From positions 767 to 64,766 of the forward strand of contig JAUXMZ010000037.1 of NCBI GenBank assembly GCA_030683105.1: a stretch of 64,000 bases of DNA. Reading direction: 5' to 3'. The notes below the pieces were generated by a model. That model did not search any database. It saw nothing but the letters and a program-made list of their open reading frames with translations, and had not been told where the DNA came from. The stretch comes from Burkholderiales bacterium. Lineage in GTDB: Bacteria; Pseudomonadota; Gammaproteobacteria; Burkholderiales; SG8-41. A program made the position numbers and the translations under genes. Positions 51,532 to 51,543 of the stretch are shown one piece after another; the stretch's first letter is position 1, and each line of letters starts with the position of its first letter.

Positions 51532-51543
51532 CACGCTACCGCC
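51532..51543 (-). promoter_or_regulatory. ops (operon polarity suppressor) element, exact match GGCGGTAGCGTG
   Basis: Plus strand CACGCTACCGCC equals minus strand GGCGGTAGCGTG. It is on the coding strand of all downstream genes and lies 129 nt downstream of the rfaH-like stop. Confidence 0.7.

Follow-up and report, generated by a model that had tools for sequence, protein, structure and literature searches.

Does a 12-nt match to the ops element still serve RfaH and a polysaccharide operon when 8.6 kb of toxin–antitoxin (TA) and other small genes lie between it and the first polysaccharide gene downstream? This question is raised by a 64 000-nt stretch of a Burkholderiales contig (JAUXMZ010000037.1; hereafter the window), the minus strand of which reads GGCGGTAGCGTG from 51543 to 51532. 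An initial annotation had taken this sequence for an exact ops on the coding strand, 129 nt after an rfaH-like gene that is itself preceded by a MarR regulator of the EPS type. The 12-mer indeed fits the 12-nt ops consensus (GGCGGTAGnnTG) exactly and is the sole match to it (searched as GGCGGTAGNNTG) in the window; it shares its strand with rfaH, the TA array, wzz and the polysaccharide cluster, and the identity of the MarR regulator (marR_EPS) is upheld by a family score far above the cut-off (Table 1). Its position after rfaH was also given correctly, except that the gap from the stop codon to ops is 128 nt. The expected number of matches in the window was 0.06, and 6 out of 100 shuffled versions of the window held at least one; no other copy with one mismatch or less was present in the window, and matches with two mismatches were at chance level. 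Since it is only mildly improbable for a single window to hold one match, it is the comparative evidence that is decisive, and sequence comparison confirms the 12-mer as a genuine conserved ops element, paired with what appears to be its cognate RfaH gene.

A scan for RfaH relatives, with one genome per species, gave 80 loci at 40–64% protein identity, all or nearly all of them from uncultured Beta- and Gammaproteobacteria. They contain 52 matches to the ops pattern, 51 of which are on the rfaH strand; in 44 of the 80 loci ops lies on that strand 47–1092 nt past the rfaH stop codon, the gap being merely 47–53 nt in many relatives. The element is likewise present in all three closest relatives found by a protein-database search, L082, L084 and L083 (96, 81 and 72% RfaH identity, respectively). 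Conservation of the 12-mer and of its place after rfaH, which had been proposed as a check on the initial annotation, is thereby established. In an alignment of 45 loci, 11 of the 12 positions are invariant. The element fits the consensus pause G-10/Y-1/G+1, with the pause at T11 (read directly from the sequence), and the two pairs of the small non-template hairpin, G2:C9 and C3:G8, are present and invariant in 45 out of 45 loci; the relevance of both features to ops is documented (PMC7819879). An origin by chance, or from the heptamer repeats nearby, would agree with the shuffling result and with the closeness of the repeat arrays, the first of which (51486–51521) begins 10 nt after ops. Against this stand the conservation of position in dozens of loci with different repeats or none and the strand bias of the matches, and we count this explanation as refuted. 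The related suspicion, that the 3′ CGTG of the match merges into a repeat and that the match is partly fortuitous, fails on the same 10-nt distance and on the retention of CGTG and of the following CCT(G/A)AA in relatives with other repeats or none. Between the window and L082, the flanking heptamer arrays have been replaced by different arrays and the block that contains ops has been retained.

The association with the two regulators is equally recurrent. marR_EPS and rfaH occur together in 52 of 81 loci, nearly always as neighbours. The order marR-rfaH-motif is that of the Betaproteobacteria, the window included, and the orders rfaH-marR-motif and rfaH-motif-marR are those of the Gammaproteobacteria; a few loci differ in having the motif upstream of the regulators. 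A scan of metagenome contigs with the exact 20-mer TTGCAGGGCGGTAGCGTGCC gave 120 contigs, 87 of which had at least 700 nt upstream. rfaH was found just upstream of the motif, on the same strand, in 60 of these 87, and marR_EPS in 17 others. Neither regulator was near the motif in the remaining 10 (L098, L099, L103, L135, L156, L189, L190, L197, L200 and L206); in L098 the motif directly precedes a polysaccharide-deacetylase-like gene (identified by eye from its N-terminal sequence), and in L103 and L197 a CcdB-like gene, also identified by eye, is just upstream. These regulator-less contigs suggest trans targets or further rearrangement; although the motif mostly sits in cis with its factor, some trans targets probably carry it as well. 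A search of the accessible literature for the linkage of MarR_EPS, RfaH and ops found no relevant paper. A second exact ops 12-mer on the same strand occurs in three loci: 9.4 kb downstream of the first in L009 (20045–20056), 3.7 kb downstream in L024 (6230–6241), and about 3 kb upstream, before rfaH, in L006 (257–268). All three copies are without the hairpin described below; they may be reloading sites.

The conserved motif is larger than the 12-mer, which forms its 3′ part. The conserved block spans about 49 nt and reads TTATGCGAAACAC-loop-GTGTTTTGCA-G-GGCGGTAGCGTG-CCTGAA; the bases that follow ops are thus themselves conserved, the window's own tail being CCTAAA. A single unpaired G (51544) separates ops from the hairpin, the stem of which is present in the minimum-free-energy (MFE) fold. 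In the 45-locus alignment, 86% of the stem cells are in standard pairs, as compared with 33–53% when the 3′ partner is slid by 1–3 columns; double-sided changes amount to 43 cells versus 12.8 in shuffles, none of 500 shuffles reaching 43, and compensatory changes are seen at 8 of the 10 stem pairs. A terminal helix of at least 8 bp is found in 77% of 103 distinct metagenomic instances versus 0.4% after shuffling, numbers that speak for consistency rather than giving a formal probability, as the instances are mutually related. A covariance model of the motif, R1, has a single match in the window, among the best of all loci. Of 83 loci, 55 have a same-strand match near rfaH or marR, and 25 of these 55 had no part in building the model.

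An inverted repeat at this place could also be a DNA operator, for example for a MarR_EPS dimer, rather than an RNA hairpin; ops would then be only a pause site beside the repeat, an arrangement compatible with RfaH loading. MarR-family proteins do bind palindromes, and the repeat is almost perfect; besides, of the 27 contigs in which rfaH is not next to the motif, 17 still have marR_EPS linked to it. We nevertheless consider an operator improbable. The stem sequence varies and its complementarity is kept, as in L011 (GCGGGGCGCG/CGCGCACTGC) and L034 (GAGGGAC/GTCCATT), and the repeat is situated downstream of the regulators rather than at a promoter. Moreover, one stem position is G-U in 37 of the 45 sequences, which pairs only in the sense-strand RNA or non-template strand, and this points to a hairpin that acts as sense-strand RNA.

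How does this motif relate to known leaders? JUMPstart (RF01707), as described by Weinberg et al. 2010 (PMC2864571), is a stem-loop followed by ops and is listed as gammaproteobacterial; the hosts here are uncultured Beta- and Gammaproteobacteria. The 12-mer of the window is identical to that of the JUMPstart leaders of E. coli and Salmonella (waa, rfb, cps/kps, hly, tra). Like them, it belongs to the leader of a long polysaccharide operon, in which it occupies the coding strand; its factor, too, is of the RfaH equivalog family, and the succession of stem-loop, one G and ops is that of E. coli K-12 rfb, with the same spacing as in the Rfam consensus. The differences are just as clear. The hairpin has 10 bp and a loop of 4–5 nt here, 5 bp and a loop of 9–10 nt in JUMPstart, with unrelated sequences; the JUMPstart 5′ box CAGYGC is missing, the window having GAGTGTT inside the 3′ arm and the new family the consensus TTATGCGAAAC; and the gene of the factor stands immediately upstream, in cis, as a pair with marR_EPS. 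The window had no match in Rfam at the gathering threshold. The JUMPstart model gave the motif 21.2 bits (gathering score 35), with only the ops half aligned. As a control, the leader of E. coli K-12 rfb reached 60 bits with the same model (5-bp stem, single G, then GGCGGUAGCGUG), and R1 in turn scored that site at only 20 bits. By its sequence, the motif is best described as a JUMPstart variant that is no member of the family by the Rfam criterion.

Other specialised NusG paralogues offer more distant parallels. Bacteroides UpxY/UpxZ, Myxococcus TaA and Bacillus LoaP also head the long operon that they presumably serve, and in the case of LoaP a leader RNA hairpin is involved. They are neither RfaH equivalogs nor users of ops, in contrast to the present locus, which keeps the canonical DNA signal; the window factor scores 75 bits against the UpxY model (cut-off 100) and 40 against that of LoaP (cut-off 125). 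PrfaH of IncX plasmids is an RfaH-like factor with an ops-like site in its own transcription unit; according to the accessible part of PMC11880322, that site is downstream of the prfaH promoter and serves conjugation genes, whereas here ops comes after the gene and before a polysaccharide cluster. The accessible text of Wang et al. 2020 (PMC7593976) describes an RfaH cluster, CL4, linked to a helix-turn-helix regulator. The present locus resembles it in having rfaH beside such a regulator and cell-envelope genes, a likeness of gene context with no CL4 assignment made; one difference is that this text gives no recruitment site for CL4 proteins.

The RfaH of the window passes the threshold of its equivalog model, and its best matches in the PDB are E. 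coli RfaH chains. At the ops-contact positions, E. coli K10/H20/R23/Q24/T72/R73 correspond to K/H/N/Q/T/F. Among 84 homologues K10, Q24 and R138 are invariant, T72, E48 and F130 nearly so, and H20, R23 and R73 variable. The autoinhibition residues E48, I93, F130 and R138 are all kept. H20, R23, Q24 and T72 have reportedly been assigned roles of their own in E. coli RfaH; those of K10, R73, E48, I93 and F130 are taken from the accessible part of PMC7593976.

Table 1. Features of the ops region and of the genes around it (window coordinates; all on the minus strand)
Feature	Position	Strand	Basis and remarks
ops element GGCGGTAGCGTG	51532–51543	−	Presumed RfaH recruitment and pause site, non-template strand
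Whole conserved motif (lead-in, hairpin, G, ops, CCTAAA tail)	51526–51574	−	JUMPstart-like; covariance model R1, 70.6 bits
10-bp stem-loop TGCGAAACAC-GCGA-GTGTTATGCA	51545–51568	−	Directly 5′ of ops; covariation, MFE fold
rfaH, specialised NusG paralogue	51672–52184	−	TIGR01955, 147.4 bits (cut-off 144.5)
EPS-associated MarR-family regulator (MarR_EPS)	52190–52504	−	TIGR04176, 160.2 bits (cut-off 88)
Candidate promoter of marR-rfaH-ops, TTGACA-17 nt-TTGAAT	52809–52837	−	Read directly; below scan criteria
Small selfish-gene array	43193–51259	−	Pfam and NCBIfam matches; all co-oriented with ops
Wzz-like chain-length determinant, ancestral first gene after ops	41718–42929	−	Wzz, EpsF and MPA1 family matches
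Polysaccharide biosynthesis cluster	7101–38729	−	Open reading frame (ORF) map and Pfam matches
Wza-like polysaccharide export protein, 918 aa	54034–56790	−	TIGR03027 and EpsE matches

We now turn to the interval itself. From ops to the start of wzz there are 8603 nt, which the initial annotation had filled with eight TA-type modules. This is about right: the window has some eight TA modules and four other small genes there, all on the minus strand, namely MazEF, Phd/PIN, two AbrB-like/PIN pairs, DUF6364/PIN, MqsRA, an Unstab_antitox pair, a DUF433 pair and two 23S-rRNA-IVP genes. That wzz is the first polysaccharide gene holds for the downstream side; the Wza-like export gene lies just upstream of marR. 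Most relatives have wza, wzz or a GDP-mannose dehydratase gene within 57–530 nt after ops, and L084 has no array at all, the wzz orthologue there (79% identical) beginning 182 nt after ops. L083 has MazEF alone between ops and wzz, L082 has MazEF and at least one further PIN module after ops, and L014 a VapBC pair between ops and wza, 85–94% identical to one pair of the window. The adjacency in L084 and the resulting series of 0, 1, at least 2 and about 10 inserted small-gene modules indicate that the ops-wzz relation is, as judged from these loci, ancestral, and that the 8.6 kb represent accretion of TA modules inside an ancestral ops leader. TA or 23S-rRNA-IVP genes follow the motif directly in about 10 metagenomic loci. 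Insertion exclusively downstream of ops was considered and rejected, in view of the CcdB-like gene upstream of the motif in L103 and L197 and of TA genes upstream of marR in many loci.

Beside these comparisons, three observations on the array may be recorded. The tandem 23S-rRNA-IVP (four-helix-bundle) genes (44092–44412 and 44453–44818) contain a 300-nt direct duplication of 77% identity. L023, L041, L061, L069 and L160 also have homologues of these genes, downstream of rfaH or ops. In the gap between ops and mazE, an AT-rich block at about 51425–51475 (ATATATCAACAAAAACAATTAATTACGATATTTTT) is conserved nearly base for base with L082, its flanks having diverged.

What could ops do at such a distance? 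As set out in PMC7819879 and in the accessible part of PMC7593976, ops pauses the polymerase and presents bases to RfaH, which loads only then; once loaded, RfaH remains in place until the operon ends, excludes NusG and thus Rho, and promotes coupling with ribosomes. The 12-mer, we think, probably works as an ops and makes up the 3′ half of a JUMPstart-like leader, and RfaH loading there probably guards a long transcript, mainly from Rho. Pausing, loading, the shielding against Rho and the part played by the hairpin are, in this scheme, all inferred by strong analogy. A polymerase coming from marR-rfaH, or starting just upstream, would pause at T11; the non-template ops bases would recruit and activate the locally encoded RfaH, which would remain on the polymerase, exclude NusG and so Rho, and couple ribosomes. 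The transcript could then cross the untranslated spacers of the TA array (40–460 nt each), reach wzz and continue through the cluster of about 46 kb without Rho-dependent polarity. The last base of the hairpin is at −13 relative to the paused 3′ end; judging by the geometry of hairpin-stabilised pauses, the hairpin would finish folding as the polymerase reaches ops and could stabilise or prolong the pause, or limit backtracking.

The initial annotation had given RfaH another task, the crossing of potential terminators in hairpin-rich repeat islands, and this is not supported. Between 41500 and 54200 there are 16 terminator-like structures versus 14.4 ± 3.6 in shuffled sequences, so that the islands, tried as terminators, show no excess, and the sole sense-strand candidate between ops and wzz sits inside a PIN gene. 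Furthermore, RfaH does little against intrinsic terminators, its main effect being the exclusion of NusG and Rho (PMC7819879 and the accessible part of PMC7593976). The absence of a terminator excess and this mode of action together make Rho, acting in untranslated spacers, the relevant obstacle. The C/G ratio of the spacers on the sense strand is 1.21 overall and 2–3 in some, and of the 18 heptamer arrays 12 are rich in C and poor in G when read in the sense direction. This is no more than suggestive of rut-like C-rich tracts in the spacers, and the arrays themselves may be rut-like.

The arrays (CAATCAC/TAATCAC, ACAACGA, CCACGAA) fill most of the spacers, for example at 42881–42922, 44053–44087, 46902–46981, 49633–49691, 51492–51521 and 52518–52557. 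Arrays at the same positions in L082 are of another type (CCACGAG), CAC every 7 nt being the only thing shared, which implies fast turnover.

From where would such a transcript start? A search for consensus promoters between rfaH and the hairpin-ops block found no match. The short gap between rfaH and ops in many relatives and this lack of a promoter make co-transcription with marR-rfaH the simplest reading of the sequence. A weak candidate for the promoter of marR-rfaH-ops is given in Table 1; it follows a terminator-like hairpin (52847–52864). A repeated unit (52837–52871 and 53779–53813) consists of an AAAT-GC hairpin-ATTT segment, terminator-like on both strands, and then a -35/-10-like pair; one copy stands before a Phd/PIN pair and one before marR. 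A different unit of about 34 nt, CACCCTCCGGGTATTTGCTTTGCGGCATG, is present in six copies (47842–47938, 49419–49601, 52888–52950) and on the plus, i.e. antisense, strand resembles a small terminator.

Several observations weigh against a functional ops that serves the whole cluster. As to the factor, a second RfaH equivalog model, NF006534, was just missed (118.9 versus 124), two of the ops-contact residues of E. coli are changed (R23 to N and R73 to F), and H20, which the window keeps, is N in most family members. An AlphaFold2 prediction from a 17-sequence alignment gave a beta-barrel for the C-terminal domain (pLDDT 82) and no autoinhibited alpha-hairpin, although we regard this predicted beta form as uninformative, neither for nor against fold switching. 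As to transcription, the promoter scan found no convincing promoter for the ops transcript, and promoter-like sites on the minus strand in the TA array (51297, 50435, 49403, 49092, 48632 and 46766) could feed wzz without ops. The cluster itself shows some decay, with a truncated dehydrogenase gene (34030–34440) and two insertion sequence (IS) transposase genes (20908–23064). On a separate point, TA modules are not specific to the leader: a Phd/PIN pair lies in the wza-marR gap (53018–53745), an MNT/HEPN-type pair in the wzz-manC gap (39961–40651), ParDE (2950–3599) and a PIN gene (63601–63987) near the ends of the window, and TA genes upstream of marR in many relatives. The idea of the initial annotation that an antiterminated leader would be a permissive landing zone for cassettes consequently stands only in part: the accretion series fits it and the specificity is weakened.

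These observations bring us to the most serious alternative, that of an orphaned ops, functional in the ancestor and uncoupled from wzz by the insertion of 8.6 kb of autonomous TA genes. The polysaccharide genes would then be driven by promoters in or after the array, and ops and RfaH would affect the first cassettes or nothing. The length of the interval, when set against the 57–530 nt of most relatives, speaks in favour of this possibility, as do the signs of decay in the cluster and the promoter-like sites before several TA modules, including a conserved mazE promoter (TTGACA-17-TAGACT). However, the motif is among those that score best with R1, and both rfaH and marR are intact; only 13 of the 171 rfaH codons differ between the window and L082, and the changes in the hairpin keep or improve its pairing. 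The inserted genes are all in operon orientation, no promoter-like site was found in the 263-nt spacer before wzz, and RfaH persists over operons tens of kilobases long (PMC7819879). On balance we hold uncoupling to be rather unlikely and retain a functional ops as the preferred explanation.

The genes that this ops would serve share their orientation almost throughout. From 51543 to about 5600 practically every real gene is on the minus strand, which gives a co-oriented cluster of some 46 kb. The annotation of the biosynthesis genes covers those down to about 17600 and includes ManC, GDP-mannose dehydratase, epimerases, APS kinase, NeuA/NeuB/NeuC-like nonulosonic-acid genes, a Wzx flippase and methyltransferases. 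The truncated gene mentioned above is a 136-aa ORF in which the N- and C-terminal ends of a UDP-glucose/GDP-mannose dehydrogenase, pieces that lie about 1 kb apart in relatives, are fused, and it looks like the remnant of an internal deletion. The transposase genes (20908–21771 and 21910–23064; IS3-type rve and IS4-type DDE_Tnp_1) are inside the cluster and co-oriented with it. The Wza-like gene is upstream of marR-rfaH-ops in the window and in L033, and its orthologue is directly downstream of ops, before wzz, in L012, L013, L014, L017 and L020; from this difference it follows that either the regulatory cassette or wza has moved within the cluster. A second ops was sought upstream of the Wza-like gene of the window, since this gene follows ops in relatives, and none was present with one mismatch or less.

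The question of how RfaH-like factors find their targets outside enterobacteria is described as unknown in the accessible part of PMC7593976, where recruitment is said to be understood only for E. coli RfaH. Here, the canonical ops is invariant across a large environmental family of beta- and gammaproteobacterial polysaccharide loci and physically linked to the gene of the factor and to a dedicated MarR, and it is joined to a hairpin longer than that of E. coli. This yields the testable prediction that the mechanism of recruitment is the same as in enterobacteria, and R1 provides a searchable model for annotating leaders that Rfam currently misses. At this point we may only speculate further. 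One rather doubtful idea is that MarR_EPS, RfaH and the hairpin-ops block together form a cassette, an ‘operon head’ complete in itself, which occurs widely among uncultured Beta- and Gammaproteobacteria. The covarying hairpin might be in it a second, RNA-level signal for recruitment of, or pausing for, the cis-encoded RfaH, a requirement not found in the enterobacterial paradigm, and the Rho-protected leader a preferred zone where co-oriented TA and other selfish genes accrete without silencing the operon. The natural series of loci with 0, 1, at least 2 and about 10 modules invites the question whether RfaH-modified transcription makes an operon tolerant of kilobases of selfish genes inserted between its leader and its first gene.

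One last observation concerns the regulatory genes themselves. A 57-nt inverted repeat (51609–51665 and 52594–52650), 95% complementary and internally structured, brackets marR-rfaH exactly. There are only two copies in the window, and one arm is also found in L082; beyond this organism and L082 the repeat was not found, and it was rejected as a general feature of such loci. One of the arms contains the end of L081, a short-read contig (939 nt) of the same organism. The repeat could delimit an invertible or mobile segment, or form a long-range RNA stem.

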